Shown here: piece by piece, positions 14,087 to 36,344 of the stretch | Numbering within the stretch: position 1 is the stretch's first letter | How the letters are laid out: each line of letters begins with the position of its first letter | Source: Dehalococcoidia bacterium | Lineage (GTDB): Bacteria > Chloroflexota > Dehalococcoidia > Plut-88900 | DNA: 64,000 bases | Assembly (NCBI GenBank): GCA_965207225.1 | Contig: CBDBLV010000005.1 | Coordinates: forward strand, 1,920,001-1,984,000 | Direction: 5' to 3' | The notes under the pieces: model-generated | Database searches by the model: none | The model's input: only the letters and a program-made list of their open reading frames with translations | Told to the model about the DNA's origin: nothing | Translations under genes and position numbers: made by a program

Positions 14087-14115
14087 TTGACAGAGCTAGT
14101 GAAGCAATATACGCT
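14087..14115 (+). promoter_or_regulatory. Sigma70-type promoter of the HTH/peptidase/Ubl operon
   Basis: TTGACA-17 nt-TACGCT; overlapping direct repeats gctagtgaagc / gctagtaagc. Confidence 0.6.
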
Positions 14116-14161
14116 AGTAAGCGTACACAGAACACTAACCGTGTCATTGTAGGAGTGCGCA

Positions 14162-15252: not shown

Positions 15253-15349
15253 ACTAGAAGGGAGTGTGTATGAGCGGGAGTAGGCGTTGAGAGCAGTGGC
15301 TTAGGGTAGAAGCCGGACGAGCCTTTCCAGAATATCACGGAGGTTTCCC

Positions 15350-15592: not shown

Positions 15593-15605
15593 GTGGAGGT
15601 GAGGC

Positions 15606-15983
15606 TTGGCACCCAACGACATAAGTCGGGTCCAGTCAGAACTGGAGGAGTTAGGATACGCTCCTACACTACACAATTGGAAGCATGGTGTCGTTGTCGA
15701 ATTCGACTACACCGTCGAGGTTGGCACTCACACGGGACAGATGTTTAGGCTCGGTATGAGCTTTCAAGAGCAGGGCTATTCGGAATACCCTCCTCACTGG
15801 ATACACGTGAGCCCTCCTGTGGATGATGGCCTGGGTGGTGTACAGGAGCGATACCAAACTGCGGATGGTCGGGAGTGGATTGCCTTAAGCAGACCCCCCA
15901 GCGATATATGGGACAATCTGCCGGTCAAGAACATGAGGCACTACCTTGACGAGCATATACGGCGATTCTGGAGTCGGATGTGA
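15606..15983 (+). CDS. Prokaryotic E2-like conjugating enzyme with no cysteine
   Basis: GYSEYPPHWIHV and WIALSRP motifs of prokaryotic E2 families; operon context. Confidence 0.7.
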   Translation: MAPNDISRVQSELEELGYAPTLHNWKHGVVVEFDYTVEVGTHTGQMFRLGMSFQEQGYSEYPPHWIHVSPPVDDGLGGVQERYQTADGREWIALSRPPSDIWDNLPVKNMRHYLDEHIRRFWSRM

Positions 15984-17446
15984 TCTTTGACGTTGCTATG
16001 CTCGCTGAAGTTGATGGAGTGGCGATAGGTCACTTGCTTCAGCATTACAGGCACGGCGAGGGCCAAGAAGACTTGTGCTTCGCTTTGTGGCGACCATCGA
16101 TAGGGAGCAGTAAGTACTCCGGGATCATCTACCGGGTCATCCTGCCTCAGCATGAAGACCGTGAATTGCACGGCAACGCCAGCTTCCAGCCTGCATACCT
16201 CACTCGGGCTCTTGATATGGCACGACAAGAGAAGGCAGGGTTGGCATTTATGCACAGCCATCCCAGTCAGGGATGGCAGGGAATGAGTGGATCTGATGTG
16301 AGAGCCGAACGAGATGTTCTTGCGTATCCGGCTGGCGCTACTGGACTTCCACTGCTTGGCCTCACTGTCGGTACCGACGGCTACTGGAGCGCTCGATTCT
16401 GGGAGCGGGCCGAGGGAGAGATGATGAGGCGGGAATGTGAGAGGGTCAGAGTTGTAGGAGCCGATTCTTATCGAGTGTACTTCGACAACAGAATTTTCCC
16501 GCCACCTGATCGAAGTGAAGTTCTCAAGCGCACCATCGACACTTGGGGAGAAGAGGCCCAACAGAACATCGCACGCCTGAAGGTAGGGATTGTTGGTTTG
16601 GGAAGCGTGGGATGTATCGTCGCTGAAGGCCTTGCCAGAATCGGCATATCAAGTTTCACACTGATCGACCATGATCTAGTAGAAGAACACAATCTCGACC
16701 GGCTACTATACTCTACGGAACGTGATATCGGGACACATAAGGTTGATTTAGCGAACCGGAAGATACGACGACACGCTACAGCCAAGGACGTCCAAGTAAT
16801 TGCCTTGCCAATGTCGATTCGAGAGCGAACCGCCTACAAGGCAGCCATTGACTGCGATCTACTATTCAGTTGCGTTGACCGTCCAGTCGGGCGAGATGTG
16901 CTCAACTATATTGCTTATACCCATTTGATTCCGGTTATAGATGGGGGCGTGGATGCTGGTCCTCTCAACAGCCATCTTCTCCTAACACACTGGCGGGCTC
17001 ACTTGGTAGGTCCGGGTAATCAGTGCATGCGCTGCATCGGTCAATACAGCACGAGTGATGTCTCAATGGAGTTGGACGGATCACTTGATGACCCTTCTTA
17101 CATTACTGCTTTACCAGCCGAAGTTCGGATGAACAACCAGAATGTATTCCCTTTCAGTCTTGGAGTAGCAAGCATGCAACTGAACTTGATGCTCAGGTAT
17201 ATCCTAGCCCAAGACTGGTGGCCCGCCATCAAGCAACAGGACTATCGATTTGTTACACAAGATATTGGTTTCCCGACCGGAAGTTGCCGCCCAAATTGCG
17301 AGTTTCCTTCACGGGTTGCTTTGGGAGACTCAATTGCTCCATTCTACTTGGTGGAAAAGACAAAGACTCACAGATACTCCCCGAAGTCAATTCTGTATAC
17401 ATGCCTTAGCCGGGTAAGAGCGTTTCTGAGAGGTAGGCGCAACTGA
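15980..17446 (+). CDS. JAB peptidase - ThiF/E1 fusion
   Basis: N-terminal E...HSHP...MSGSD JAB motif; C-terminal GLGSVG, DHDLVEEHNLDR, CMRC/CRPNC. Confidence 0.88.
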   Translation: MIFDVAMLAEVDGVAIGHLLQHYRHGEGQEDLCFALWRPSIGSSKYSGIIYRVILPQHEDRELHGNASFQPAYLTRALDMARQEKAGLAFMHSHPSQGWQGMSGSDVRAERDVLAYPAGATGLPLLGLTVGTDGYWSARFWERAEGEMMRRECERVRVVGADSYRVYFDNRIFPPPDRSEVLKRTIDTWGEEAQQNIARLKVGIVGLGSVGCIVAEGLARIGISSFTLIDHDLVEEHNLDRLLYSTERDIGTHKVDLANRKIRRHATAKDVQVIALPMSIRERTAYKAAIDCDLLFSCVDRPVGRDVLNYIAYTHLIPVIDGGVDAGPLNSHLLLTHWRAHLVGPGNQCMRCIGQYSTSDVSMELDGSLDDPSYITALPAEVRMNNQNVFPFSLGVASMQLNLMLRYILAQDWWPAIKQQDYRFVTQDIGFPTGSCRPNCEFPSRVALGDSIAPFYLVEKTKTHRYSPKSILYTCLSRVRAFLRGRRN

Positions 17447-17506
17447 TAGTGCATACCTATTCCAGTACACTAAGGGCCGGTGGTAGAATACCCTGAGGAG
17501 TATACC

Positions 17507-20257
17507 ATGCCTCCACGTAGGAGATCACCACAATCCAAGCGTCCCATTGAGTCCTATGACCACCGGGACAAGGAAAGACTGAACAACCCACCCGTCGGAC
17601 TAGTCACGCCGGAGACTGACCGGGACGCGGGACGGAAGACCTACGCCTACGACCCCCATCTGGACCCGCAGCTCCAGTGGGCGGGAAAGGCGGAGCATAC
17701 CTCCTTTCAGGTTCCCACGGTCTCTCTCCATGTACACGAGCGCATCGACCCCCGCACCATCATTGAGGCTACCCGCAGGCGCAACGGCAACGGCGCTCCG
17801 GTACAGGGCAGTCTCTTTGAGCTGCCGGAGGAGAACCCCCCGGTCCGCAACGCCATCGAGTTCTACCAGCACCGTCACAACTGGACCAACCGCCTCGTAG
17901 CTGGCGATAGCCTATTGGTGATGAACAGCCTGCTGGGGAAGGAGGGCATGGCCGGCAAAGTGCAGATGGTCTACATCGACCCTCCTTATGGAATCCGGTA
18001 TGGCTCTAACTTCCAGCCTTTCGTGAACCGTCGAGACGTGAAGGATGGCAAGGATGAGGACCTGACCCAGGAGCCGGAAACCATTAAGGCCTTCCGCGAC
18101 ACCTGGGAACTAGGCATCCACTCCTATCTGTCCTATCTACGGGACCGTCTGCTGCTAGCGCGGGAGATGCTAAGTGAGACAGGTAGCGTTTTCGTGCAGA
18201 TTTCCGACGAGAACGTCCATCTGGTTCGAGAACTCATGGATGAGATTCTTGGCCCCGAACAGTTCATGTCTCTTATATCGTTCAGGACAAAGATCCCACT
18301 GAACGCAGCCTTCTTGCCCAATATAGCAGATTTCTTGATTTGGTATGCCAAAGACAAGGATAAGGTAAAGTTCCGACGGTTGTTCACAACTCGTAATTTC
18401 GGTGAGGAAACACAATTCTCTAACGCACAGCTGGAGGATGGCGCTGTAACAAAGGCATCTGAAGTGCCCGAATCTGAAATCGAGTCTACTCGCTACTTCA
18501 CCCTCATTGATCTCATGGCAACCGGTTATACCGAATCATGCCACTTTGAGTTTTTCCTAGAAGGAAGGAGAGCGTACCCCAACCCTACTACAAGCTGGAA
18601 GACTACACCTGAAGGAATGCAGCGACTGATTGCCGCCAACAGGGTCCGATGGCAAAGGACTGTGCCAAGATATGTCTTTTTCGCAGACGACTACCCTGTC
18701 ATGCAAATCACCAACCAATGGACAGATACGCAGGGGGCAGTTGGCAAAACATTCGCCGTCCAAACCTCCTCAAAGGTCATTGAGCGTTGTCTCCTGATGA
18801 CTACCGACCCTGGCGACTTGGTGTTCGACCCTACCTGCGGCTCCGGCACCACCGCCCATGTCGCCGAGCAATGGGGCCGTCGCTGGATCACGTGCGATAC
18901 ATCCCGTGTGGCGATAGCTCTTGCCAAGCAGCGATTGGTGACCGCCCTTTACGACTACTATGAGTTGGCCCATCCAAGCGAGGGAGTGGGTAGCGGCTTC
19001 AACTACAAGACTGTCCCCCACATCACTTTGGGTTCCATCGCTAACAACCCCGACATCAAAGAGGGCATGACCCAAGAGGACATCGACAAGGCCATCGCCC
19101 GCCACGCTCCCCAGGAGACACTGTACGACCAGCCTTTGGTGGACACGGGCAAAAGGCGGGTGACCGGTCCCTTCAGTGTCGAGGCTGTCCCCGCACCGGC
19201 GGTCAAGCCCATCGACGACATTGACGTTGCCGAGCCGCTGCCCGCCGATGACACGGTGGCCCGCTCTGGCGAAACACTGCGCCAGTCAGACTGGCGGGAG
19301 GAGCTGCTAAAGACGGGCATCCGTGGTAAGGCAGGGCAGTTCATTCGCTTCGCCAGGTTGGAGCCTTTGCCGGACCATCGCCATCTACACGCCGATGGCG
19401 AGTCGTTGCCCAACGCCGACGGCGCCCAGAGCATTCGGGAAGGCCCAGCGCGGGCATCACAGCGTGTTGTCGTATCTTTCGGACCTGAGCACGCGCCGTT
19501 GGAGCCGCGTCAGGTGAACCAAGCCTTGCAGGAAGCCGAAACCCTAAGGCCGAGTCCTCGTATCATCGTCTTCGCTGCCTTCCAGTTCGACCCCGAAGCA
19601 GCGAAAGACATCGACGAAACCAACTGGCCCGGCATGACCCTGCTGAAGGCGCAAATGAATGCTGACCTACTCACTGAGGATCTGAAGCGCAAGCGAGCGA
19701 GCAATGAGAGCTTCTGGCTCATCGGCCAGCCGGATGTGCAGGTTGAGGCCATCGCTAATGGTAAAGACGCGGGAAAGCGCCGCGTTAGTGTCCAGGGGTT
19801 CGATTACTACAACACCAAGAGCGGCGATGTGGAGTCGGGTGGACAGGACAAGATAGCGATGTGGATGCTAGACACGGACTACGACGGTCGCAGCCTTTAT
19901 CCTCGGCAAGTGTTCTTTCCCATGTCTGGCAGCAACGATGGATGGACTCGCCTGGTCAGGAACCTCAAAGCGGAGATAGACGAGGAGCTAATCGAGGCTT
20001 ATCGGGGCACCCTATCTCTGCCCTTCGAGCCGGGAGAGAATCGGCGGATAGCGGTCAAGATCATCGACGACCGGGGTATCGAGAGCCTGAAGGTGATTGG
20101 GTTGGACGCCGAACCTAAAGTAACGAAGTCCAGTAGAACTCTGGAGGATATTTTCGTAGCGCGCTTCAATGACATCCCTCAAGAGGAATGGGATCGGCTG
20201 CCGCACGACTTGATTGACAACCTGGATCACTACACCGCTGGCGCGGATCGTCGATGA
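17507..20257 (+). CDS. mod: Type III R-M modification methylase with a C-terminal antitoxin-like extension
   Basis: DPPY motif IV and DPTCGSGTT motif I (beta order); RBS GAGGAG before ATG 17507; extra ~50 aa after DDRGIESLKVI. Confidence 0.9.
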   Translation: MPPRRRSPQSKRPIESYDHRDKERLNNPPVGLVTPETDRDAGRKTYAYDPHLDPQLQWAGKAEHTSFQVPTVSLHVHERIDPRTIIEATRRRNGNGAPVQGSLFELPEENPPVRNAIEFYQHRHNWTNRLVAGDSLLVMNSLLGKEGMAGKVQMVYIDPPYGIRYGSNFQPFVNRRDVKDGKDEDLTQEPETIKAFRDTWELGIHSYLSYLRDRLLLAREMLSETGSVFVQISDENVHLVRELMDEILGPEQFMSLISFRTKIPLNAAFLPNIADFLIWYAKDKDKVKFRRLFTTRNFGEETQFSNAQLEDGAVTKASEVPESEIESTRYFTLIDLMATGYTESCHFEFFLEGRRAYPNPTTSWKTTPEGMQRLIAANRVRWQRTVPRYVFFADDYPVMQITNQWTDTQGAVGKTFAVQTSSKVIERCLLMTTDPGDLVFDPTCGSGTTAHVAEQWGRRWITCDTSRVAIALAKQRLVTALYDYYELAHPSEGVGSGFNYKTVPHITLGSIANNPDIKEGMTQEDIDKAIARHAPQETLYDQPLVDTGKRRVTGPFSVEAVPAPAVKPIDDIDVAEPLPADDTVARSGETLRQSDWREELLKTGIRGKAGQFIRFARLEPLPDHRHLHADGESLPNADGAQSIREGPARASQRVVVSFGPEHAPLEPRQVNQALQEAETLRPSPRIIVFAAFQFDPEAAKDIDETNWPGMTLLKAQMNADLLTEDLKRKRASNESFWLIGQPDVQVEAIANGKDAGKRRVSVQGFDYYNTKSGDVESGGQDKIAMWMLDTDYDGRSLYPRQVFFPMSGSNDGWTRLVRNLKAEIDEELIEAYRGTLSLPFEPGENRRIAVKIIDDRGIESLKVIGLDAEPKVTKSSRTLEDIFVARFNDIPQEEWDRLPHDLIDNLDHYTAGADRR

Positions 20258-20673
20258 CTGAAATCTTCGTGGACACCGCATATCTCATAGCCCTAGCCAG
20301 GCGTCACGACCAATGGCACGACACGGCGCTCGCCGCTCGGAATAGACTTGGTGAAGTACCCTTGGTGACGACAGACGAGGTGCTCACTGAGTTCTTGACT
20401 GCGATGTCGAACGCCGGTCCGGGGTTGCGAGGGGACGCCGCGGGTACGGTCAGAGAGATCCTGGAGGCCGGCGCAATTAGAATTGTAGCTCAGACACGCC
20501 AGTCCTTCCTTGAAGGGCTCGACAGATACGAGAAGCGTCTCGATAAAGACTATAGCCTTCAGGACTGCATCTCTATGAATGTGATGGAGGCAGAGGGAAT
20601 TACCGAGATTCTCACCAGCGACCACAACTTCGAGCAGGAAGGCTTTACCATCCTGATGAAGCAGGACAGGTAG
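20254..20673 (+). CDS. vapC: PIN-domain (VapC-like) toxin
   Basis: FVDTAYLIAL...EVLTE...SLQDCIS...LTSDHNFEQEGF. Confidence 0.9.
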   Translation: MTEIFVDTAYLIALARRHDQWHDTALAARNRLGEVPLVTTDEVLTEFLTAMSNAGPGLRGDAAGTVREILEAGAIRIVAQTRQSFLEGLDRYEKRLDKDYSLQDCISMNVMEAEGITEILTSDHNFEQEGFTILMKQDR

Positions 20674-20681
20674 GGGCCGCG

Positions 20682-23486
20682 ATGGAACAGTCAACGATAG
20701 ACCGGCTCATCATCAACAAGCCGTATGAGGAGCCGAAGGAGTACTGGAACTACAATCGGGAGACACGTAAGTTCTGTCGGAAACCTGGCCGCCGTCCTGC
20801 GGGCTACCTGATAGCGTCTGGGGACTCCAAGACTTTCGACGATCCAGGTGTCTTCGTCGAAATCCCTCTGGTCAACCAGATACGGCCGCGGGTAAAGGAT
20901 TGGAGTGACGCCGGGTATCCTGGCGTCACCGCCATCACCAAGCGCCTGTTGGAGCACTGGACAGACCCGGAAGAATTCGAGAGCCGTCGATTCTTCTTCT
21001 GTCAGATCGAAGCTGCCGAGACGCTCATCTGGCTCGCCGAAGCCCCAGACAGCGAGAAGGTAGGCATCGACATCCCTGGCGACGGTGGAGAGTTCTGGCG
21101 CCTATGCGCCAAGATGGCCACCGGGACGGGCAAGACCGTTGTAATGGCGATGCTCATTGCTTGGCACATCTTGAACAAGGTCTCATATCCCCAGGACACC
21201 CGGTTCGCCAAGAACGTGCTGGTGGTTGCCCCTGGACTCACCATCAGGAGCCGTCTTGCGGTCCTGGAACCATCCCACGAGGACAACTACTACGAGGCTT
21301 TCCGTGTTGTACCTTCATCCCTACTGGACCGGCTCCGCCAAGGGAAGGTCATTGTCCGAAACTGGCACGCCCTCAACTGGGAGACCGAGGATCAGATTAG
21401 GAGAAAGCGGAGCGTGGACAAGCGCGGGGCAAAGAGTGACGAAGCCTACGTTCGCGATGTGCTGGGCGACATGGCCGGAGCACGAAACCTGCTAGTCATC
21501 AACGATGAGGCGCACCATGCCTGGAGAGTGCCCGCCGAGTCCAAGGTGAAGGGCGTTGCCAAGGCGGACATCGAGGAGGCGACCAAGTGGGTTGGCGGCC
21601 TGGACCGGATTCATCGAGCGCGGGGCATCCTCACTTGCTTTGACTTCTCGGCCACACCCTTTGCTCCTTCCGGCAAGAGGAGTTCCGAAGAAGCGCTGTT
21701 CGACTGGATAGTAAGTGACTTTGGACTGAACGACGCCATCGAGTCCGGGTTGGTCAAGACGCCGAGGGTCGTGATTCGGGACGACACACCGGTTGATGCC
21801 AAGACCTACAGGTCGCGCCTCTACCACATCTACAACGACCCGGAGGTGAAGGACGATCTGAATCGCCGTGCCCAGCCCCACGAACCGTTGCCCGACTTAG
21901 TGACCAATGGATACTATCTGCTTGGCTATGACTGGAGAGAGGCCGCCAGAGAGTGGCAAGAAGCCAAGCTCAAGACACCACCGGTAATGATCACCGTCGC
22001 CAACCGCACTGAGACCGCAGCCAGAGTCAAACACGCCTTTGACCGCAAGCGAGTCCTTATAGACGAGCTCTGTGACCCGGACCGTACGTTGCACATCGAC
22101 TCCGGCGTTCTGAAGAGAGCCGAAGAGTCCGAGGAACCGATAGCCGAGATCATGCCGGACGATGAGGATGAATCTGACAACGGTGCTGTCAGTCCCAAGC
22201 TCACTAGAGACCAGATGGCCGAGCAGTTGCGAAAGATGGTGGACACCGTGGGACGGCCCGGGCAGCCCGGTGAGCGGGTACAGAACGTCATTTCAGTGGG
22301 AATGCTCTCCGAGGGCTGGGACGCCAAGACCGTGACACACATCATGGGTCTGAGGGCCTTCACCAGCCAACTGTTGTGCGAGCAGGTGGTCGGGCGAGGT
22401 CTCAGGCGCACGTCTTACGATGTGAATCCAGAGACAGAGATGTTTGACCCTGAGTACGTCAACATTTTCGGTGTGCCGTTCACCTTCCTTCCCCACGAAG
22501 GGGGCGAGAGTGGGCCTCCGAAGCCTCCCTCACCCAAGACGGCTATTGAGCCAGTACCGGAAAAGGCCCCGTTCGAGATCAAGTGGCCCAACATCATCCG
22601 CATTGAGCATGTCTATCGCCCCAGACTGACCTTGGATTGGAATCAGGTAGAACGTTTGGAGCTCAATGCCAGTGAAACGGCGCAAGTGGCCGAGCTTGCC
22701 CCGGTAGTGGATGGCAAGCCCGACGTGTCCAAGCTGACCAGCATCGACCTAGAGGCGTTGGCCCACGAGTACCGGACTCAGAAGATAATTTTCGAGACCG
22801 CACGGGACGTGTTTGACCTGATGAAGCCGTCCTGGGCAGGGAGCCGTGAGTCGCTCATCGCCCAGTTGGTGAAGCTGGTAGAGCAGTTCCTTCTATCGGG
22901 CAGCCTGGGTATTACTCCTCCCCTCTTCTATCAGGACGACATGCGCCGTCGCCTTATGATCACATTAAACATGACGAAGGTGGTGCAGCACGTATGGGAT
23001 GCTGTCCGCGTCGAGAACACGGAACGACTTGAGCCGGTGTTCGACCGCGACCACCCAATACGCTCTACTGCGAACATGGCAACCTGGTACACAGGCAAGC
23101 CGTGCAACCTAACGGACCGCAGCCATATCAACATGTGCGTCTACGACAGCACTTGGGAAGCCTCGGAAGCTTTTGAGTTGGATTACAACCGTCTAGTGAA
23201 TGCCTGGGTCAAGAACGACCACCTGGGCTTCGAGGTGCTCTACGTCTACCGTGGTGTGGTGCGGAAGTACCGACCGGATTTCATCATTCGCCTGAGATCA
23301 GGAAACACGCTGATCCTGGAGACCAAGGGGCAACCAGATGAGCAAAGCTACTCAAAGCACCGCGCTCTGGAGCAATGGATTGAGGCCGTCAACCAGCACG
23401 GCGGATTCGGCCGCTGGTCAGCAGATGTTTCTTATAGCCCAGGGGACATCAAGGACATCTTGGCGAAGCACGGTGCTGTCGAATGA
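20682..23486 (+). CDS. res: Type III restriction endonuclease/helicase subunit
   Basis: MATGTGKT, DEAHH, SAT, EGWD, QVVGRGLR; C-terminal PDF...LETKG nuclease motif. Confidence 0.92.
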   Translation: MEQSTIDRLIINKPYEEPKEYWNYNRETRKFCRKPGRRPAGYLIASGDSKTFDDPGVFVEIPLVNQIRPRVKDWSDAGYPGVTAITKRLLEHWTDPEEFESRRFFFCQIEAAETLIWLAEAPDSEKVGIDIPGDGGEFWRLCAKMATGTGKTVVMAMLIAWHILNKVSYPQDTRFAKNVLVVAPGLTIRSRLAVLEPSHEDNYYEAFRVVPSSLLDRLRQGKVIVRNWHALNWETEDQIRRKRSVDKRGAKSDEAYVRDVLGDMAGARNLLVINDEAHHAWRVPAESKVKGVAKADIEEATKWVGGLDRIHRARGILTCFDFSATPFAPSGKRSSEEALFDWIVSDFGLNDAIESGLVKTPRVVIRDDTPVDAKTYRSRLYHIYNDPEVKDDLNRRAQPHEPLPDLVTNGYYLLGYDWREAAREWQEAKLKTPPVMITVANRTETAARVKHAFDRKRVLIDELCDPDRTLHIDSGVLKRAEESEEPIAEIMPDDEDESDNGAVSPKLTRDQMAEQLRKMVDTVGRPGQPGERVQNVISVGMLSEGWDAKTVTHIMGLRAFTSQLLCEQVVGRGLRRTSYDVNPETEMFDPEYVNIFGVPFTFLPHEGGESGPPKPPSPKTAIEPVPEKAPFEIKWPNIIRIEHVYRPRLTLDWNQVERLELNASETAQVAELAPVVDGKPDVSKLTSIDLEALAHEYRTQKIIFETARDVFDLMKPSWAGSRESLIAQLVKLVEQFLLSGSLGITPPLFYQDDMRRRLMITLNMTKVVQHVWDAVRVENTERLEPVFDRDHPIRSTANMATWYTGKPCNLTDRSHINMCVYDSTWEASEAFELDYNRLVNAWVKNDHLGFEVLYVYRGVVRKYRPDFIIRLRSGNTLILETKGQPDEQSYSKHRALEQWIEAVNQHGGFGRWSADVSYSPGDIKDILAKHGAVE

Positions 23487-24181
23487 TCTGGGCACCCAAT
23501 GTGGAGAATGCATCAGAAGTCGTTAAGGCAGCGTTGGCCGATATTGAGGCCGACGAAAGGCAACTGATCGCCAGTTCAGGTGAGATGTTCAAAGCCGACG
23601 GTGGTGCAGTTTATGGATTTGACCTCTTAGCGAATGCTGCCATAAATCGCGCCTTGGCCCTGTCTTCAGGCTTCAGGACATTGATCCTTGAACGGAATCT
23701 CGTTTGTGCAGGATCCCTAGTCCGGCTGCAACTGGATACCTCGCTCCGCCTATACGCCGGCTTCATTGTAGAGAAGCCACATGATTTCGCTATCAAAGTA
23801 TTCGCGGGTAAGAACATCAGAAGGTTGAAAGACAAAGATGGCAACTCCATGACTGATCGGTACCTGGTTGAGAAACTGGCGAAGCAATATCCTTGGATCG
23901 AATCAGTTTACGAACGGGCGTCAGACTACGTGCACCTGTCTGGTACCCATATCCTAAGTTCCGTGGAACTCATCGACAAACAGTCAGATGTTATAGGCTT
24001 GAAGGCTAGCTTCCTCGACAAGCCACTTTCAGACGACATCTATATTGATGCCATAAATGCATTCAGGCAATGCACACGCATCGTTGCTGACCATATTGAA
24101 GGTTGGATATGGACCAAGAATAATCCGGAAAAGATTGCCTCATTAACGGAGATGCGAGAACGGGAAAGTCATGGCATCTAG
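23483..24181 (+). CDS. Hypothetical helical protein, possibly HEPN-like
   Basis: Translationally coupled to res; YERASDYVH resembles the Rx4-6H HEPN motif. Confidence 0.5.
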   Translation: MIWAPNVENASEVVKAALADIEADERQLIASSGEMFKADGGAVYGFDLLANAAINRALALSSGFRTLILERNLVCAGSLVRLQLDTSLRLYAGFIVEKPHDFAIKVFAGKNIRRLKDKDGNSMTDRYLVEKLAKQYPWIESVYERASDYVHLSGTHILSSVELIDKQSDVIGLKASFLDKPLSDDIYIDAINAFRQCTRIVADHIEGWIWTKNNPEKIASLTEMRERESHGI

Positions 24182-24360
24182 TTGGAGGCTCAACTTCTTC
24201 GCAATGGTTCTTGAACCGAGGTCGCATCCCTGCATACGTATGCATCCCCAACTCAACCATCGACGCTCGGCTCACAGGTTGCAAGGCCGGATGAATGCCT
24301 AGTTCTGTATGACTTCGCCGTCTGCTTAGGGGATGACTAGATTGGGACTTCCCATCGAAA

Positions 24361-24412
24361 AGTTCGCAGTTTAGTAGGCTTTGGCCCACCAGACTTGATA
24401 AAATCAAGAACC
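24361..24412 (+). other. att junction 2 (E1|E2), central CC at 24386-24387
   Basis: agttcgcagtttagtaggctttggc CC accagacttgataaaatcaagaacc. Confidence 0.85.
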
Positions 24413-24470
24413 TTCGCAATTTCCTTCAAGCTGGAGGTATAGTCGAGGCCCAGGAGTTGGAGGTGGTCAG

Positions 24471-27044
24471 GTGAGATGTATCGTCCTCATTGGACTGCTA
24501 GCCATTCTTCTGTTCCTCGTGGCAGGTTGTGGCGATCGCTACTCTACCCCCTCGCCCAGCGCTACTCAAGAGCCAACGAACACCAGCACCTCGACGCCTG
24601 CCATCGGCGGCGCCAACGCGTCCCAGTCACTCAGCGACGATATAGAGTTGGCTGGAGAGACCACATGGACCCTCGAATCGTTAGACGGTCAACCAGTCCT
24701 AGAAACGTCTGTAATAACGCTGAGGATTGGTGACAACTGGATTGACGGTATTGACGGATGCAACTCCTACGGCGGGCGATCCGAGGAGCGTACGCCTGTC
24801 GCCGGTGCAGAGGGGGTGTTCTCAATACCACCCTTCGGAGTCACTGAGATGTTGTGCCCCGAGCCCGAGGGTGTCATGGATCAGGCCGATGCATATATGG
24901 AAGCCCTCGTGCAGGGGGAGAGGTTCCGCATCACTGATGACCGGCTGGAGATCCTCGACGGCGGCGGAGCGAGAAGACTGATTTTCGTCAGGCGGGCGCC
25001 GCTGCCCGGGAGTCCCATTGACCTGAAAGGCACTGCTTGGCGGCTCCTCATCGAGGGTGATGCGATGGATGGCGTTCGCGTACCGACCCTGAGCTTCTTG
25101 GATGATCGGTTGGTCACCGGAGCGACTGCCTGTCGCAGCTACGTTGCGACGGGCCAAGCGTCCGAAGGTGCTCTGAGGTTTCCAGGGAAGAGAATGTTAG
25201 GGTCCTCGCAATCATGGCAGTCGTGCGTAGAGCAAGAGCGGACTCTGGAGGGCGAGTTCACCGACTTTCTGACGTGGGCGAGGGAGTATTCGGTTGATGA
25301 GGAGGGAGGAGCAAGTCGCCTCAGAATCTGGAGCATCAGGGGCAAGACCCTGACCTTTGAGCCGCTGCCACAGGCCGAGGACATCTCCGACACGGATTGG
25401 TCCCTTACGGCGTTCGTCGAACTCATGCTCGACTCCGGGATGTGGCACCACCGGACTGCCGAGGTGATCCAGGGAACCAAGATTACGATAGATTTCGACG
25501 ACCACAGCATCAGCGGGTTCACGGGGTGCAACTCTTACAGGGGTCCGGCAATGTTCGAAAGCGGATCGGTCACGGTGGATCGACAGTCCTTCTACTCTAC
25601 GACGAAGCTATGCGAAGTGCCGGAGGGCCTGACAGAGCAGGAGAAGCGCTACCTCTCTCTAGTACAGCGGGCCACACGGTATGGCATCTCTGGCGACAGT
25701 CTGTTCATGCAGACGGATGACGACGTGCTCCTGTTGTTCCAGGCCGAGGAGATGGCGGAAACGCCTGTTCCGGCTGCGGCTCCAGAGGCCACACCAACCG
25801 CGATCCCGACTCCAGCGTCGGAGCCAAGCCCAGGGACCTTGTCGGCCAGAGACGTCCTAGACTCAATGACCGCTGCCATGTCGGCATTGGACTCCGGGTA
25901 TATCGAGATAGAGGTGACGACGAAGCTGTCGGCTGGGGACGGGTCGCAGCAGACCGTAACGATGGAGATAGTAGGTGACTTCCAAGCCCCTGATCGAAGC
26001 CGGGTCAACATGAGCATCGACACCGACGACGACAGCGCGGAGTTTGAGATAATCACCATTGAGGACAAGACGTACCTGAAGCTGCCCGATTTCGACAGGT
26101 GGGCTATCAGCACCGGTTCCATCACTCCGTACGGCGATCTGTTCTCATTCGGCGCGTTCAGCACGGACTTCGACGCCGGGGTAGTCGCGTCCTTCAACTC
26201 GCCGATACGGGAGGTTTTTGTGGGTGAGAGTGTCCACTACGTGAGGGGGCCGGTATCGGGGTATGCCCTGGCCGACCTGCTTGGCATGGTCGAAGATACC
26301 GATGGCGAAGACGTGGCCGAATTTGGCGAGGGCGTGGTCGAATTCCGGATTGGAGTCGATGACTTCCTGGTCCGGAAGATGGTGATCGAGGCCGAACTGC
26401 CAGACGAGGAAGGCACGCTAAGTATGCAGGTCAACATGACGCTGTCCGATTTCGGCAAGCCTGTTGATATCCAGGTGCCCGATCCAGAGACGGGTGCCGA
26501 CCAGCCGGGCGATCAGACTGGGGCAACCACGGAGGTTCTGGAGAACGGCTGGATCAGAGTTGACTTGGCCCAGCAGGGTTTCGGGTTCGCCATTTCGGTC
26601 CCGCCATTGTGGGAGTTGGACACGACGAAGGATGAGTGGGGCAACCTGCGAAGCGGCCTCTGGCTCCAAGGCAAGGACACGTCGGGGCCGGACTCCGAGG
26701 GTCTCCGTTTGCATTTCGTACTACAGATCGACTTGTTGTTCTCTGCGTACGCCGACTTGGAGGAGTACACGGATATCTACATAGCAAACACCGCCTTCTT
26801 CGCGGACATTGATGAGCTGGACATCGAGAGCGAGAAGGTCAGCTTGCCAGCAGGAGACGCTTTCGTTCAGAGCTTCTCAAACATCTCACCGACACGCGGC
26901 ATCCGGCTATCGCACGCTCAATACATCCTGGCGTATGGCGAAGACGCCTTCATCATCACCTTCACTTCGCCGTCGGAAATCTTCGATGAAGTGAGGCAGG
27001 TCCTTGAGCAGATCGCCGAGACGATAGAGTTATACGACCCATAA
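24471..27044 (+). CDS. Lipoprotein with three META-like domains and an LppX/LprAFG-like domain
   Basis: Lipobox VAGC; three repeats of W.L...G..GCNSY.G...T...C; C-terminal 'LSDFGKPVDIQVP'. Confidence 0.75.
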   Translation: MRCIVLIGLLAILLFLVAGCGDRYSTPSPSATQEPTNTSTSTPAIGGANASQSLSDDIELAGETTWTLESLDGQPVLETSVITLRIGDNWIDGIDGCNSYGGRSEERTPVAGAEGVFSIPPFGVTEMLCPEPEGVMDQADAYMEALVQGERFRITDDRLEILDGGGARRLIFVRRAPLPGSPIDLKGTAWRLLIEGDAMDGVRVPTLSFLDDRLVTGATACRSYVATGQASEGALRFPGKRMLGSSQSWQSCVEQERTLEGEFTDFLTWAREYSVDEEGGASRLRIWSIRGKTLTFEPLPQAEDISDTDWSLTAFVELMLDSGMWHHRTAEVIQGTKITIDFDDHSISGFTGCNSYRGPAMFESGSVTVDRQSFYSTTKLCEVPEGLTEQEKRYLSLVQRATRYGISGDSLFMQTDDDVLLLFQAEEMAETPVPAAAPEATPTAIPTPASEPSPGTLSARDVLDSMTAAMSALDSGYIEIEVTTKLSAGDGSQQTVTMEIVGDFQAPDRSRVNMSIDTDDDSAEFEIITIEDKTYLKLPDFDRWAISTGSITPYGDLFSFGAFSTDFDAGVVASFNSPIREVFVGESVHYVRGPVSGYALADLLGMVEDTDGEDVAEFGEGVVEFRIGVDDFLVRKMVIEAELPDEEGTLSMQVNMTLSDFGKPVDIQVPDPETGADQPGDQTGATTEVLENGWIRVDLAQQGFGFAISVPPLWELDTTKDEWGNLRSGLWLQGKDTSGPDSEGLRLHFVLQIDLLFSAYADLEEYTDIYIANTAFFADIDELDIESEKVSLPAGDAFVQSFSNISPTRGIRLSHAQYILAYGEDAFIITFTSPSEIFDEVRQVLEQIAETIELYDP

Positions 27045-27045
27045 A

Positions 27046-28323
27046 GTGAGCTACCGCCTAAAACCTTCACAATTTTCTTCAAGCTGGAGGTGTAGCCGCA
27101 GCACCTATAGAGCCCAGTGGAGGCTGAGAGTGACCGTCGGTGCCCATCTTCGTCAGCAGCGCTTTCGTAGCAGGGGCTGGCATACTGTATTCGCGACTGT
27201 GCTCCTAGCTGTCCTGGTACCCGTTGTCCTGGTGGCGTGTACAGATGAATCACTACCGCCGCGAACTCAGCCTCCGGAAGCCAGTCCCACTGCGACGACG
27301 AAGGAGACCGGGGTCTTGGTGCTGCTACCCGGCGAGGGCCCGAGTCCGACCGACATTGCGTGTCTGATGCAGGAGTTGGAGGGTACATCCTCCGGTGAAC
27401 GCATCGTCGCTGTCTTATCGGCCACCGACGCCTCTGGGAAGAGGCTAACGATGGAGGAGAGTGAAGCCCTAGCTCGGGCAGCGGAAGGCTGTGGCATCGA
27501 AATAGAGTTTGTCCTTACGAGACCGGAATCGACTGCTGCGCCATCCACTACGCCGACTCCCACGGCCATTCCTGCACCCGTACCCACAGTCACGCCCAAG
27601 AGCGCCCGCGATTTGCCGACGCTCACGCCCTTCCCTCAGACCACTAGCTCGGATGAATGGCGTGGCCTTGTGGTCGCCCCGGAGGACCGCTGCTCCCCGT
27701 ACGACTCCGACGACTACCCTTATTCGCAGTCCGTCGAGCGTCGTATCGTCGCCAGCATGGGCGGCATCATCTACGGCCCCTATACGGGAATGTGGTTCGA
27801 TAGCACATCCGAGACTGACATTGAGCACATCGTCGCTCGCTCCGAGGCCCACGACAGCGGCCTCTGCGCTGCGAACGCCGCAACGAGACGACAGTTTGCC
27901 GCCGACCCTATCAACCTCACCCTGGCAAGCCCCTCGGTCAATCGCCACCAGAAGAGCGCCAAGGACGCCGCCGAATGGGTACCCGATCTGAATCAGTGCT
28001 GGTTCGCTGATCGCGTCGTCGAGGTTCGGAAGAGGTATGGCCTGACCATCGACGAACGCGAACGCGACGCACTGGAGAACATCTTGTCGGATTGCACGTC
28101 CGCGGAAATGATTGTGCGAGAAGCTCCCTTGGCCCCTACGCCGACTGCCGTTGCGCAAGGAAACGAAGCAGCCAACAACGCCCTTGAGATGTATGACGAC
28201 AACGGGAACGGTCACATCACCTGCGCAGAGGCGCGCAACCACGGCATTGCTCCTGTGCGCCGTGGACATCCCGCATATGAGTACATGAACGACGCCGACA
28301 ACGACGGCGTGGTCTGCGAGTGA
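27046..28323 (+). CDS. Secreted lipoprotein with DUF1524-like HNH nuclease and Excalibur Ca-binding domain (true start probably downstream)
   Basis: Lipobox LVAC; DIEHIV...NLTLASPSVNRHQKSAKDAAEW; C-terminal CAEAR...DADNDGVVCE. Confidence 0.75.
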   Translation: MSYRLKPSQFSSSWRCSRSTYRAQWRLRVTVGAHLRQQRFRSRGWHTVFATVLLAVLVPVVLVACTDESLPPRTQPPEASPTATTKETGVLVLLPGEGPSPTDIACLMQELEGTSSGERIVAVLSATDASGKRLTMEESEALARAAEGCGIEIEFVLTRPESTAAPSTTPTPTAIPAPVPTVTPKSARDLPTLTPFPQTTSSDEWRGLVVAPEDRCSPYDSDDYPYSQSVERRIVASMGGIIYGPYTGMWFDSTSETDIEHIVARSEAHDSGLCAANAATRRQFAADPINLTLASPSVNRHQKSAKDAAEWVPDLNQCWFADRVVEVRKRYGLTIDERERDALENILSDCTSAEMIVREAPLAPTPTAVAQGNEAANNALEMYDDNGNGHITCAEARNHGIAPVRRGHPAYEYMNDADNDGVVCE

Positions 28324-28424
28324 TGAGGCGGCTCCCGGTCCGATAGCAGCGAAGCTCAGAGGCGCGAGAGAGCGCCCGCGGACGACCTGAGCGAGACCCC
28401 CAAGTATTGACTTAGGACGGCTTA

Positions 28425-28445
28425 GTGTGTAACCATGCTACACAC
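28425..28445. promoter_or_regulatory. Operator palindrome of the TA operon
   Basis: gtgtgta-accatgc-tacacac, downstream of a TTGACT -35 box. Confidence 0.55.
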
Positions 28446-28470
28446 CCACTTTGGTCAATAGGAGGGCGAT

Positions 28471-28746
28471 ATGGCCAGGGTTCAATTGGTGATGCCGGAC
28501 GCCGACCGAGACCGTTTCGTCGATCAGGCGCGGCGCGAGGGAATGTCACTCAGTGCATGGATGCGGGCAGCCGCACGAGAACGCCTCGAAACACGCCAGC
28601 AGGTCAAGCTGTTCGAATCTCCTGAAGACGTTAGGGAGTTCTTCCGGTCCCGCGCAGCGCTGGACGGTCCGGAGACAGAGCCGGACTGGAGCGAACACCT
28701 GCGAGTGATGAACGAGTCGCGGGCGGCAGGGGTCACCGGCACATGA
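28471..28746 (+). CDS. RHH/CopG-like antitoxin
   Basis: ARREGMSLSAWMRAAA; coupled to the PIN gene. Confidence 0.8.
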   Translation: MARVQLVMPDADRDRFVDQARREGMSLSAWMRAAARERLETRQQVKLFESPEDVREFFRSRAALDGPETEPDWSEHLRVMNESRAAGVTGT

Positions 28747-29138
28747 TCTTCGTAGACACGAACGTCTTCATGTACGCAGTGGGACAGCCCCACGCACTCC
28801 AGACGCCCGCCCAGGACTTCTTCGTCGAAGCCAACCTGAGCGGCACGCCGCTGTGCACGTCAGCGGAGGTGATGCAGGAACTAGCCCATGTTTATCTGCC
28901 CACGGGAAGGCTGCAATCCTTTGATGCGACGCTGGAACTGATGGCGAGCGCGGCCGTTGAAGTTTGGCCGCTGGAAGAGGATGACGTAGCTCTGGCCCGC
29001 CAACTACACGAGCAGCACCCCACCTTACAGGCCCGGGATCTCTGCCATCTAGCAAGTTGCCGACGGCGCGGCGTCAGGGACATCAAGACCTTTGACCAAA
29101 CATTCGCCGCTGTATTGGGCCATCCCTCAATCCAATAG
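28743..29138 (+). CDS. vapC: PIN-domain (VapC-like) toxin
   Basis: MIFVDTNVFMYA...EVMQE...ARDLCH...TFD. Confidence 0.9.
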   Translation: MIFVDTNVFMYAVGQPHALQTPAQDFFVEANLSGTPLCTSAEVMQELAHVYLPTGRLQSFDATLELMASAAVEVWPLEEDDVALARQLHEQHPTLQARDLCHLASCRRRGVRDIKTFDQTFAAVLGHPSIQ

Positions 29139-29179
29139 AGGCCGAGCAGCTGGGTAGGCCGCAGGCTGGTTGATTCAAC

Positions 29180-32074
29180 ATGCCTAGACAGACAGAACCG
29201 AACGCCAACAACGCCCTGGGCGACATTCTGCGAGGTATGATGCCGGGCTGCGAAGTCCGCTCTGAAAACACCCAGACCTTCATCGACTATCCGGGCCGCC
29301 ATGCCGATGTGCTGATCGTCGCGCCGGGCCGCTCCCCGGTGGTGGTCGAGGCCGAGTTTGAACCGGCTGCTGAAGTAGAGAAGGACGCCTCCGAACGATT
29401 GGGGCTTCGCGTGGAGGGGCAACCTCGAACGGTCGAGGCGGCCATAGCGGTGCGCTACCCACAGGTTGTGGAGGACGCCTACGACGTGCGCCAGGTCCTC
29501 TCCGAAACCCGTCTCTCCTACTATGTCCTGCACCAGGACGGCCCTCGCTTCCCCGAATCGGGCTGGCTGGAAGGTTCAGTGACCGACTTGGCAGACCTTG
29601 CTCGTCTGGTGTCCGTCCCGCAGAAGGCGGTTGAACAGGCGGCTGACACGCTTGAGCACGGCATCGGGCAGGCAGCCACCCGTTTGGAGGAAATGGCGAA
29701 GCTGCGCCCTAACGTCACCCCTGTTATCGCCCGCCTATTGGGAATGAGCGACGTTCCCCAGACCCGCCGCATGGCCTGCGCCATTATCGCCAACGCCATG
29801 GTCTTCCATCAGCGCATCGCGGGGATACACGAGGGTGTGAAACCTCTGCGCTTGGTGTGCGGTCCCAGCGTCGCAAACCCGCAGGGCGAAACGCTTACAG
29901 CCTGGGAAGATATCCTGAGGATCAACTACTGGCCCATCTTCGCCATCGCCAAGGACATCTTGGAGCAGCTTCCCGGAGACGCCGCCACCAACATCCTGCG
30001 GGAGTTGTTGGAGACTTCCCAGGAAGTTGAAGCCACCGGCGTCGACAACGCCCACGACCTGACCGGACGCATCTTCCAACGGCTGATCGCCGACCGGAAG
30101 TATCTGGCCACCTTCTACACGCTTCCAGCTTCGGCCGCGCTGCTGGCCCGGCTGGCAGTGGCCAAGATGGATGGAGTGGACTGGGCCAACGCCGAGGCCA
30201 TTGGCAGGCTGCGGATCGGGGATTTCGCCTGCGGTACCGGTGCCCTGCTTTCGGCGGTGTACGAGCAAGTTGCTTCCCGCCACGAGCGTGCCGGGGGTGA
30301 TTCCGCAGCCCTGCATCCAGTGATGATAGAGGAGGTCCTGTACGGCTGCGACGTCATGCCCTCGGCAATTCACATCACCGGCTCCACCCTGTCCGGTATG
30401 CGGCCCAACGTGGGATTCAAACAGTCCCGTCTCTACACCATGCCCTACGGAAGACAGAAAGACAGCACGGTGAAGATAGGTTCCTTGGAGTTACTCCAAG
30501 CCTCCACAGCCCTCACCTTGTTCAATACCAGCGACCCCGCCCTGCGCACCGGCAGCGCGGGCGAGGAGACTGCCGCTCAGATCAACGTGGACATCCCGGA
30601 CGCGAACTTTGACTTGGTGATAATGAATCCACCCTTCACAAGGGCAACCAACCACGAAGGCGCCCACGCGGATATCACAAACCCCGCCTTCGCCGCTTTC
30701 GATGCCACGCCTGCCGACCAAACAAAGATGGGAGACCGGATCAATCAGTTAGGGAAGGAATCCTGCTATCACGGCAACGCTGGAATTGCTTCAGCATTCG
30801 CTGCTCTGGCCGACAAGAAGCTCAAGGCCGGTGGAGTCCTTGCCCTGGTCTTGCCCCTGTCCGTGGCGAACGGCCTGTCGTGGAAGGGTCTTCGAGCAAT
30901 GCTTGCCAGCGATTATACGGATGTAACAGTCCTCAGCATCGCTGAGAATGGCCGTGAAATGTCGTTCTCGTCCGATACCGGGATGGCAGAGTGTCTGGTA
31001 GTTGCCCGCAAGGTTAGGCCAGATGAAACACCTGACCCCAGGGCGAGCTTCTCGTCCTTCGGTGGCAGGCCGCGGGGGTTTGCCCACTCCAGTTCGTTGT
31101 CGAGCAGCCTACGGAATGGTCGCAAAGTGAGGCGACTAGAGGACGGGCCGTATAGTGGAACGCTGCTGATGGTCGGTAATGAACAGGCTGGCGAGTCCGT
31201 AACTGCTCCGATAGGCAAGAATGGAGCGGGTTGGAGCGCGGTGCGCCTAGCCGACTATTCTCTAGCACAGACCGCTTATGCCCTGTCTCAGTCCCAGATC
31301 TGGCTGCCCGGGAGCCCATCCCAGGTTGAGTTGAAGATGGCCTTGCTGAGCAACATCGGCAAACTCGGTTTGGTACATCGCGACATTACTGGACCGGCTC
31401 CTCGCGGCCCCTTCGACAAGGTTGCTCCAAGCCCTACAGCCACCTATCCTGCCCTATGGAACCACGATGCGAAGCAGGAAACTCGCATGGTCTGTCTTCC
31501 AGATTCCCAGCTACTGGCCAGAGTGGGGATGGAAGACAAGGCGGCTGATGTCTGGGCTACAGCCGGACGCGCTCACTTGAACCTTGACTTCACCTTTGGC
31601 TCCCAGGCTCTGACTGTCGCGTTCACGGAGAGGGAATCCATCGGTGGGAGGGTATGGCCAAATGTTATCTTCCCCGACAGTAGATTCGATAGTGCTTATA
31701 CGATATGGGGCAACTCCACGTTGGGGCTCCTATCGTACTGGTGGCACTCCAACCGCCAGCAATCGAGCAAGGCTGGCATGACTATCCGTCAGGCCGAGTC
31801 ACTAGCTGTGCTCGACCTCCGCGCTCTCACCGACGAGCAATTGCTCATGGCTGAAATGATCTTCGACGAGTTCCGGGACAAGGAGTTGAAGCCCGCCTAC
31901 CTCGCGGACGCTGACCCTAATCGAGCCCTGCTCGACCACCGTGTGGTCTGCGACCTGCTTGGCTTCGACGAGGATGTGTACGAGGGAGTTCGGAGGCTGT
32001 CGGGCAAATGGTGCGCCGAACCGTCCGTTCACGGCGGGAAAGCGCGTCCAAGGGGTGCCAAGCTAGTCTTCTAG
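29180..32074 (+). CDS. Type IIG-like fused endonuclease/N6-adenine methyltransferase
   Basis: N-terminal ADVLI...VVVEAE; DFACGTG motif I; NPPF motif IV (gamma order); C-terminal TRD-like region. Confidence 0.8.
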   Translation: MPRQTEPNANNALGDILRGMMPGCEVRSENTQTFIDYPGRHADVLIVAPGRSPVVVEAEFEPAAEVEKDASERLGLRVEGQPRTVEAAIAVRYPQVVEDAYDVRQVLSETRLSYYVLHQDGPRFPESGWLEGSVTDLADLARLVSVPQKAVEQAADTLEHGIGQAATRLEEMAKLRPNVTPVIARLLGMSDVPQTRRMACAIIANAMVFHQRIAGIHEGVKPLRLVCGPSVANPQGETLTAWEDILRINYWPIFAIAKDILEQLPGDAATNILRELLETSQEVEATGVDNAHDLTGRIFQRLIADRKYLATFYTLPASAALLARLAVAKMDGVDWANAEAIGRLRIGDFACGTGALLSAVYEQVASRHERAGGDSAALHPVMIEEVLYGCDVMPSAIHITGSTLSGMRPNVGFKQSRLYTMPYGRQKDSTVKIGSLELLQASTALTLFNTSDPALRTGSAGEETAAQINVDIPDANFDLVIMNPPFTRATNHEGAHADITNPAFAAFDATPADQTKMGDRINQLGKESCYHGNAGIASAFAALADKKLKAGGVLALVLPLSVANGLSWKGLRAMLASDYTDVTVLSIAENGREMSFSSDTGMAECLVVARKVRPDETPDPRASFSSFGGRPRGFAHSSSLSSSLRNGRKVRRLEDGPYSGTLLMVGNEQAGESVTAPIGKNGAGWSAVRLADYSLAQTAYALSQSQIWLPGSPSQVELKMALLSNIGKLGLVHRDITGPAPRGPFDKVAPSPTATYPALWNHDAKQETRMVCLPDSQLLARVGMEDKAADVWATAGRAHLNLDFTFGSQALTVAFTERESIGGRVWPNVIFPDSRFDSAYTIWGNSTLGLLSYWWHSNRQQSSKAGMTIRQAESLAVLDLRALTDEQLLMAEMIFDEFRDKELKPAYLADADPNRALLDHRVVCDLLGFDEDVYEGVRRLSGKWCAEPSVHGGKARPRGAKLVF

Positions 32075-32147
32075 CCATACTATATGTCTAACAAGGGCTT
32101 CAAACGACCTTACAATAGCCTTCTTGGATTGATCTGGAGGCAAGAGA

Positions 32148-33056
32148 ATGTCTGACCAAGAGGAACGTGAAATCACTGCCGCTGATTTGCCCATGACTCT
32201 TTACTTAAATCAACGGATGACATTCGATCTCCTTGCCACCCTTGAGGGAGGTTTCTCTAACTTTGCAACTGTTCAGACAACATCCTCTGGGGAAACAACA
32301 ACAGAGTTGTCTGGAGGAGCGCAGCTCGGCGTCAGCAATGTCTTTGCCTTCCTCGGTATGCAATTGGGCGGCCATGGTTCCCGACAGGCAGGGCAGAAGC
32401 TAAGCGAGAGCACTACAGAAAACATTGTTCACACGCCTGTCTCTCTTTTCGCCCGGCTCAGGAAAGAATTGCAGGACCGTGACTTGGTTCGCAGTATGTC
32501 GACCTCATTCAATCTTGACGAGTTGCGCCCCAGTGACTTTGTGGAATTTGAAGCGACCCTTCGGCGACATCAATTGATAGTGCAACTTTCGGCGTTCGCT
32601 GAACTAATCCCATTGATGGGTGCCTTCGAAGAGTCATCAGGCTCGAAGAGTCCGCGTCAACGCAGGCAAGATAAGAGCACGGCATCGCAGACTCTTAAGC
32701 AAGTCAACTCGTTGTTGAGCGCATTAACAAGCGGTGAGTCGCGGGACCTCGTGTCTAGGATTGGTGAAACCAATGTAGTCATCACTACTGAACAGCAGTA
32801 CTTCAATGATCCCACGATGAACGACATCATCGATGGAACCTTCCATGTATTCGGTAAGGCTACTCGTGTCATTCCAAGGGGCGATGATGCAACCATAAGC
32901 CTTCTCAGAAAGGCCCCACTAGGGCAGTTCAAAGCCATTCTGCCAGCTATTGCTGAAGCAACGAGTCAGCTTGAGAGTCTGGGTCCTTCAGGGGATACAA
33001 CCACTGAGATTAAAGGTCCGGCAATCCAAGTCATGCCTATTGCCATTTTCTCCTGA
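32148..33056 (+). CDS. DUF6414-like hypothetical protein
   Basis: YLNQRMTFDLLATLEGG N-terminus, DFVEFEATL, C-terminal PIAIFS. Confidence 0.6.
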   Translation: MSDQEEREITAADLPMTLYLNQRMTFDLLATLEGGFSNFATVQTTSSGETTTELSGGAQLGVSNVFAFLGMQLGGHGSRQAGQKLSESTTENIVHTPVSLFARLRKELQDRDLVRSMSTSFNLDELRPSDFVEFEATLRRHQLIVQLSAFAELIPLMGAFEESSGSKSPRQRRQDKSTASQTLKQVNSLLSALTSGESRDLVSRIGETNVVITTEQQYFNDPTMNDIIDGTFHVFGKATRVIPRGDDATISLLRKAPLGQFKAILPAIAEATSQLESLGPSGDTTTEIKGPAIQVMPIAIFS

Positions 33057-33202
33057 ACCCTGAAATCCGCTTGCCAATGTCACTTGTTGCGATCAACGTA
33101 ACAATTCGGCCGCCAATTGTTGGGACGACTGATGCTGTCCCATGCACCGGCACTGTCATGCGATGGTTGCCTACCGTGCAGGTTCTTTCCTACGTTAGAT
33201 AC

Positions 33203-36334: not shown

Positions 36335-36344
36335 GGTATAGCGC

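Follow-up and report, generated by a model that had tools for sequence, protein, structure and literature searches.

The window (the whole 64,000-nt stretch of DNA that was analysed, C5:1920001-1984000 of a 4.03-Mb assembly in five contigs) is the central portion of 78 kb in which five integrative elements, E0 to E4, are stacked at the 3' end of one tRNA-Met gene. From that gene (C5:1911928-1912002), the order is E0 (a-type), E1 (c-type), E2 (b-type), E3 (a-type), E4 (b-type) and then the host flank at C5:1990338, the types being those of the half-sites, or arms, at the element ends (see below). Only the right part of E0 is in the window (1..5896, minus strand), with a giant repeat protein gene as its cargo (1-5715, plus strand); the E0 integrase and the tRNA-Met target lie to the left (C5:1911928-1913555). 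E1 (5897..24386, minus strand, 18.5 kb) encodes the integrase IntA, an AAA protein, a Replic_Relax protein, an M78/ThiF pair, and a type III-like methylase with a helicase. E2 (24387..42016, plus strand, 17.6 kb) encodes a META lipoprotein, a GmrSD-like protein, an Eco57I-like methylase, a DUF6414 protein, a Replic_Relax protein, a UvrD helicase, a SIMPL protein, and the integrase IntB. E3 (42017..53012, minus strand, 11.0 kb) has the gene for IntC, one for a Replic_Relax protein, and unnamed genes, and E4, a homologue of E2, is represented by its left part (53013..64000, plus strand), its integrase (C5:1988772-1990331) and its end (C5:1990338) lying beyond the window.

The giant ORF of E0, which is open at the window start, exceeds 1,900 aa and contains eight tandem repeats of ~327 nt with 86-94% identity. 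The elements are rich in restriction/defence-type cargo, which is found at 14509-23486, 27046-33056, and 56611-58934 and comprises an M78 peptidase + ThiF pair, an N6/N4 methylase + ResIII helicase, GmrSD_C/Excalibur, an Eco57I-like methylase, DUF6414, and a C5 methylase + DUF4928. E1, E2, E3, and E4 each have a Replic_Relax protein; the portion of E0 inside the window showed none. Inside E4 there is an IS21-type insertion (61202-63237, minus strand) with an IstB-like ATPase and an rve/Mu-type transposase; it explains why the spacing of the E2/E4 homology is shifted by ~2.25 kb (26081 versus 28328). Directly downstream of the E4 tail lies an LRR lipoprotein gene (53082-55577), whose opening part encodes a Pro/Thr-rich linker in 24/48-nt tandem repeats (53173-53600).

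IntA, IntB, and IntC are large serine recombinases (LSRs) with the Resolvase, Recombinase, and Zn_ribbon_recom domains. PF00239, the N-terminal resolvase catalytic domain, is found in all three with E-values of 6e-33 to 9e-33, and PF07508 and PF13408 are above their cut-offs in each. The preliminary description had claimed that the three recombinase ORFs cross their att sites without a stop, and this is indeed the case. The c-type body of IntA, the integrase of E1, occupies 5897..7478 on the minus strand (PF00239, 6.7e-33), and its ORF (7478->5823, 551 aa) runs 24 codons past the att site. The IntB ORF as integrated (40450..42114, plus strand, 554 aa) consists of a body that extends to 42016 followed by ~32 codons of read-through antisense to IntC, while that of IntC (41667..43601, minus strand, 644 aa) consists of a body (43601->42017) followed by ~116 codons antisense to IntB. 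The E4 integrase gene (C5:1988772-1990364) reads through att into the host flank for a total of ~999 codons, within an open frame of 1072 aa, and has the most extreme altered C-terminus in the genome. The integrase profile matches the SPbeta integrase 9dxh (E 1e-18); the last ~56 integrase residues have no counterpart in this best solved relative, the profile match stopping before them. In AlphaFold models, residues 343-443 form long helices with low confidence, which may be the coiled-coil insertion that LSRs have in the zinc-ribbon domain.

There are 31 full-length copies of this integrase family in the 4.03-Mb genome (12 b-type and 19 a/c-type), and tblastn with IntB gives 49 matches. In four runs from the likely source sample, the word depth over the int genes (window 40003-44004) is ~50-200 times that over the unique cargo of E3 (47340-52675), which argues that the integrase family is highly repeated in that community.

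Four att sites of 52 bp are present in the window. They are near-palindromic, with dyad-symmetric arms, and have in common a plus-strand core, GCCCACC. If P denotes the arm on the int side and P' that on the tail side, site 0 (5871..5922, plus strand, centre 5896/5897) joins aP', the tail arm of E0, to cP, the arm of IntA. Site 1 (24361..24412, plus strand, centre 24386/24387) joins cP' (E1 tail arm) to bP' (E2 tail arm), tail to tail. At site 2 (41991..42042, plus strand, centre 42016/42017), bP (IntB arm) meets aP (IntC arm), and the two int genes converge and overlap. Site 3 (52987..53038, plus strand, centre 53012/53013) consists of aP' (E3 tail arm) and bP' (E4 tail arm). Both ends of each element are half-sites of cognate type (c/c, b/b, a/a), and joining them in silico gives a near-palindromic 52-bp site of a single type; by a count from the arm-type table, the genome contains 19 elements bounded by cognate arms. 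On the basis of symmetry, the crossover dinucleotide is probably the central CC within GCCCACCA. Around sites 0, 1, and 3, scans detected neither terminators nor promoters.

The counterpart to the missing stop lies at the opposite end of each element, where the far-end tails hold the last 17-24 codons of its integrase. Four such in-frame tails had been proposed for E1 to E4, and all were found where the preliminary description had placed them. The c-type tail of E1 (24337..24386, reading 24390->24337 on the minus strand) encodes GG-PKPTKLRTFRWEVPI and a stop and is parted from IntA by integration. On the other side of site 1, the b-type tail of E2 (24387..24442, reading 24383->24442 on the plus strand) encodes G-PPDLIKSRTFAISFKLEV and a stop. 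The same arrangement recurs at site 3, with the a-type tail of E3 (52960..53012, reading 53016->52960 on the minus strand; GG-PKLTVGRTVFELWMGL and a stop) facing the b-type tail of E4 (53013..53068, plus strand; G-PPDLIKSRTFSLCFKLEV and a stop). An orphan distal tail of b-type (27032-27094; like ..TFTIFFKLEV and a stop, 67% identical to site 1) lies between the META lipoprotein and GmrSD-like genes; it lacks an att arm and may be the relic of an older junction inside E2.

The tail of E0 modifies this picture. This a-type tail (5896->5823, minus strand) encodes GGPELTIGRTIFELWMGDPTSLRRS and a stop, ending in ..PELTIGRTIFELWMGDPTSLRRS, and is read as the C-terminus of IntA when integrated. The idea that the genes are split is correct insofar as the int ends have been parted by integration, but the IntA gene of the window has the native-like a-type tail of E0 for its 3' end, a point that the preliminary description had not mentioned. 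Three ORFs in the genome have native-like tails: IntA (551 aa), C5:379150 (545 aa), and C5:1068317 (540 aa). The tail of C5:379150 likewise comes from an upstream neighbour; for C5:1068317, no element that might supply the tail was identified nearby. Since a neighbour in the stack can complete an int gene, as with IntA and C5:379150, the excised circle is not the sole source of a native tail, and the original proposal that the complete enzyme is made only from the circle was too strong.

Are the tails translated? The reading frame, motif, and stop are kept across copies, and the DNA downstream is at random-level identity (0.24-0.28); this and the cognate half-sites at the two ends of each element go beyond what chance would produce. 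The 14 a tails of the genome follow the pattern GGP.LT..RT[IV]FE[LM][WR][ML]G, then 1-8 codons and a stop, and four of its six c tails end in RTFRWE[VI].[IL] and a stop, the other two, of which one runs on and one is degenerate, being without a kept stop. In b tails, the stop is at codon 20 in all 12 copies of this genome and in 30 of the 37 distinct copies from this genome plus eight family genomes, the remaining seven lacking it there; identity is 0.53 inside the b tail versus 0.28 past the stop. As integrated, the tails sit in frames of 33-49 codons that have no ATG, which shows that they are not separate genes.

One explanation for this conservation is that the tails are never translated and are kept as DNA, be it as longer att arms or as signals of another kind. 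The att half-site does make up the first ~8 tail codons, and within it the a tails have a pN/pS of 1.04, so this part must be constrained as a DNA site rather than as protein. The 'RT' common to the tails is, moreover, the GAAC/GTTC outer motif of the att half-site, which again means a constraint at the DNA level. The preliminary description had seen in the tails an 'RT' at the same offset followed by alternating hydrophobic residues; both are present, but the first reflects the att motif. Beyond the arm, however, the a tails have a pS of 0.86 and a pN of 0.15 (pN/pS 0.17), with none of 124 pairwise differences falling at second codon positions, and the c tails have a pN/pS of 0.19. In the b tails, the overall pN/pS of 0.69, which takes no account of the alternating pattern, gives only a weak signal; of 30 copies, 28-30 have hydrophobic residues at codons 13, 15, 17, and 19 (pN/pS 0.41), and codons 12, 14, 16, and 18 are free (pN/pS 0.94). 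Such alternation of constrained hydrophobic residues is what a strand that buries one of its faces would be expected to show. A role as DNA alone is very improbable given this two-codon periodicity, the fixed stop in the b tails, the absence of second-position differences in the a tails, and the existence of database proteins that end exactly at the tail stop (see below). It follows from the purifying selection on the a and c tails and the fixed stop of the b tails that, in one state at least, it makes a difference to the protein to have its native C-terminus.

The close homologues in the databases lead to the same conclusion. Among 240 of them (120 matches to IntB and 120 to IntA), 50 end in native-like tails by a strict motif (6/120 and 44/120, respectively), at the predicted 539-547 aa: 24 have 545 residues, 12 have 544, five have 540, five have 547, two have 546, and there is one each of 542 and 539. 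For the b-type, 540 aa is the exact length predicted by joining the arms. In a 53-row alignment of native-tailed proteins, T-x-F-E in the tail is invariant. Most of the other homologues are read-through products, either antisense to a converging int (553-555 or 643 aa) or antisense to a tRNA, as in one that ends in ..GGPSWTRTRDLSLIRTAL and a stop. Tails of the latter kind are near native length (544 aa in this example) and again contain 'RT', here from the T-loop and two codons nearer the core. Taken together, the purifying selection and the full-length homologues of the predicted length identify the far-end tails as C-terminal coding sequence, with attP inside the 3' end of each int, as the preliminary description had it; this anatomy of the split int genes and the coding status of their tails are, in our judgement, highly probable.

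As regards distribution, relatives of IntA are present in 147 of the 301 Dehalococcoidia genomes sampled, a tally that takes in the window's own genome and an unpublished one (G243), and all 80 related loci kept from public genomes belong to Dehalococcoidia or Chloroflexota MAGs. In three genomes of 1.4-1.5 Mb, likely Dehalococcoides, copies adjacent to ssrA are 29-31% identical to IntA over the N-terminal 180-320 residues, and copies adjacent to tRNA genes in the same three genomes have 42-48% identity to IntA and the same antisense overlap.

The nature of the target is revealed by the junctions next to tRNA genes. In all six such junctions in the genome, the left arm is the 3' end of the tRNA (Ile, Ala, Lys, Val-tac, Val-gac, and Met), joined to the int arm of an a- or c-type element; the common core GCCCACCA is hence the tRNA acceptor strand plus CCA. 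In all six tRNA arms the GTTC of the T-loop occupies site positions 8-11; in the element arms it occupies 2-5, a shift of 6 bp. In the parts of the LSR literature available, an outer (zinc-ribbon) motif that in attB is likewise nearer the centre than it is in attP is described for phiC31, where the shift is 5 bp. The halves of the junctions that are not tRNA are unrelated to each other in sequence, which fits recognition of the tRNA half alone, if the sequences are a guide. The genes of a/c-type integrases adjoin the tRNA and are antisense to it, and those of b-type integrases are directed away from the tRNA and are sited at the far end of the element. Two ideas on the b-type were set aside: that it targets a/c-type tails (none of the six tRNA junctions in this genome has a b tail) was rejected when junctions of a tRNA with a b tail were found in relatives, and mimicry of a tRNA end by the IntB arm, which agrees with tRNA-Val at 15 of 26 positions, was given up as unnecessary.

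The b-type junctions bear on the question of what the mobile unit is. It could be a composite of an a and a b element, with the converging int/int site as attP and the tail/tail site as an internal site that never recombines. There are seven converging, overlapping b/a int pairs in the genome, and E1+E2 and E3+E4 resemble repeats of one unit of 29-36 kb, with spacings of 26-36 kb. Nevertheless, a lone a-type element is found at tRNA-Lys, c+b and a+c neighbours also occur, and in relatives b tails directly abut tRNA ends in 5 of 25 distinct copies; besides, tails that were never joined to an int would escape coding selection. A composite unit is, on this evidence, highly unlikely. The abutting b tails and the lone element at tRNA-Lys imply that the a and b types are independent elements, and both, as far as these junctions indicate, use tRNA ends.

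The mechanism that we propose is as follows. Each element would be moved by its own LSR, with an attP that is the 52-bp near-palindrome within the last ~25 codons of int. Recombination at the central dinucleotide would leave the body of the enzyme at one end of the element and its last 17-24 codons at the other. The native protein (about 540 aa for the b-type and 544-547 aa for the a/c-types) would be encoded only when the arms are joined, be it in the excised circle or through a compatible tail supplied by the upstream neighbour in a stack; otherwise, the gene would read into the antisense strand of a tRNA, into that of a converging int, or into host DNA. The tail would be translated and constrained, with its alternating hydrophobic, strand-like pattern. 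Newcomers would probably enter at the tRNA-proximal junction, where only the tRNA half-site would matter. Entry at this position would make the stack chronological, with E4 as the oldest element and E0 as the newest, and chronological stacking would mean that int/int and tail/tail junctions need no special rule; the opposite core polarity of the a/c- and b-types would place elements head to head and tail to tail. Observed here are the layout of the split genes, the matching of arms, tRNA as the target, and selection acting on the tails; that the swap of tails may lower or otherwise alter integrase function after integration is the weakest step. It counts against this explanation that the stop is not kept in seven of the 37 b tails and in two of the six c tails.

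Structure prediction and metagenomic data were brought to bear on the tails and on excision. AlphaFold2 gave a mean pLDDT of 52.8 for IntA with a shallow 53-row native-tail alignment of close homologues and of 39.9 for IntB with a likewise shallow 47-row alignment of close homologues, the tail being below 45 in both. A predicted complex between residues 150-505 and 506-551 of IntA scored 0.05. In the contigs of four runs from one sample, which break at the int/att repeats, no excision joints were found at the sites over 36001-56000, nor was a circular junction or an empty site seen. None of 28 whole metagenome contigs had terminal overlaps, and a native tail was absent from all 52 loci with a near-complete int 3' end (of 79 metagenome loci).

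The core idea is not new. McMurdie et al., who studied the ssrA genomic islands of Dehalococcoides in 2011 (PMC3146451), described in the available part of their paper DsiB, an LSR of ~540 residues whose gene is antisense to, and abuts, the 3' end of the tRNA-like gene; the 3' end of the dsiB gene overlaps attL, and its stop is only found outside the island. They proposed that for full function this gene may need to be on the circle or to lie downstream of a neighbouring island, so the same overlap and the same hypothesis have been in print since then. As far as that account goes, the islands are also tandem, and they have a six-gene integration module that includes a small serine recombinase, DsiA. 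IntA and its relatives resemble DsiB in the bacterial class of the host, in length (~540 residues), in an int 3' end that extends over attL with no stop inside the element, and in their tandem arrangement. They differ in that integration is into tRNA genes (Met, Val, Lys, Ile, Ala) rather than ssrA; in that IntA is only ~30% identical to the ssrA-adjacent copies, over part of its length; in the existence of a second polarity, the b-type; and in that the far-end tails are conserved here and not at the two DsiB-like neighbour junctions examined. Neither a DsiA-like small recombinase nor the six-gene module was found beside IntA, IntB, or IntC, where the neighbours are AAA and Replic_Relax proteins, and a scan of 27 ORFs gave no second resolvase.

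Other systems in which integration alters a reading frame are less close. The integrase of the Myxococcus xanthus phage Mx8 is a tyrosine recombinase and not a serine recombinase. Its attP is inside int, so that integration gives the int gene (IntP/IntX) a new 3' end, with reportedly altered properties of the enzyme (PMC6070905, in its available portion); the likeness lies in the attP within the int ORF and the new 3' end, the difference in that Mx8 is a phage in which the change was tested experimentally, and that here an altered activity is a possibility. In the archaeal 'suicidal' (SSV-type) integrases, the gene is partitioned by integration, and the complete gene has been proposed to act like a directionality factor (PMC8371274, in the text available); these are, however, tyrosine recombinases of archaeal viruses and plasmids, and a large part of the gene is split off, as against 17-24 codons here. 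In the integration-dependent immunity of mycobacteriophages, an attP inside an ORF leads to the removal of a C-terminal peptide on integration and to an altered stability of the protein (PMC3694055, again as far as its available text goes), but there it is the repressor gene that is split, what the protein loses is a degradation tag, and a different kind of integrase is involved. The LSRs of the phages SPbeta, A118/LI, and phiC31 have the same domain order and att sites that are imperfect palindromes of ~50 bp; in the portions of this literature available, an attP inside int is not described for them, and the targets here are the T-loops of tRNAs. In the literature searched, supplements aside, no report was found of selection on the far-end tail of a serine integrase. 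What is new here is the evidence for such selection, the targeting of the tRNA T-loop by LSRs, the two opposite polarities, and the model of chronological stacking.

What does the swap of tails do? One simple explanation is that it does nothing: the overlap would be incidental compaction and the tail an ordinary, mildly constrained C-terminus, the swap being without regulatory meaning because any tail works or because the integrase is unneeded after integration. The length of the read-through proteins varies from 517 to about 1000 aa (with one open frame of 1072 aa), yet all 31 family copies are intact ORFs. The integrase of phiC31 is active as a C-terminal fusion according to the available literature, which indicates that an altered C-terminus can be tolerated by LSRs. 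One genome (G055) has three DsiB-like copies, which have in common ..FLVETGEG / ..GEGW and diverge afterwards, in a region that McMurdie et al. term divergent in the available text (PMC3146451). Against this stand the strong purifying selection on the a and c tails (pN/pS 0.17-0.19) and the exact stop that has been kept in 30 of the 37 b tails. We would place the probability of an incidental overlap somewhat below even. A regulatory effect of the tail swap is possible, though we hold it to be rather doubtful. The fullest form of our proposal is a switch of commitment, in which only the joined gene would be fully competent: the element would cripple its own integrase on entering the tRNA site and would exit only with the help of a newly arrived relative or of a compatible upstream tail, which, together with recognition of the tRNA half, would lead to chronological stacks of defence-gene cargo. 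This is a speculative and, we consider, unlikely scenario.

One-way DNA insertion is what large serine integrases are valued for, and the natural control of their direction is an active question. [quoted passage not shown] The family also shows serine integrases using the universal T-loop of tRNA as an attB motif, and it explains the build-up in a 4-Mb genome of 31 copies and of multi-element stacks of restriction/defence cargo.
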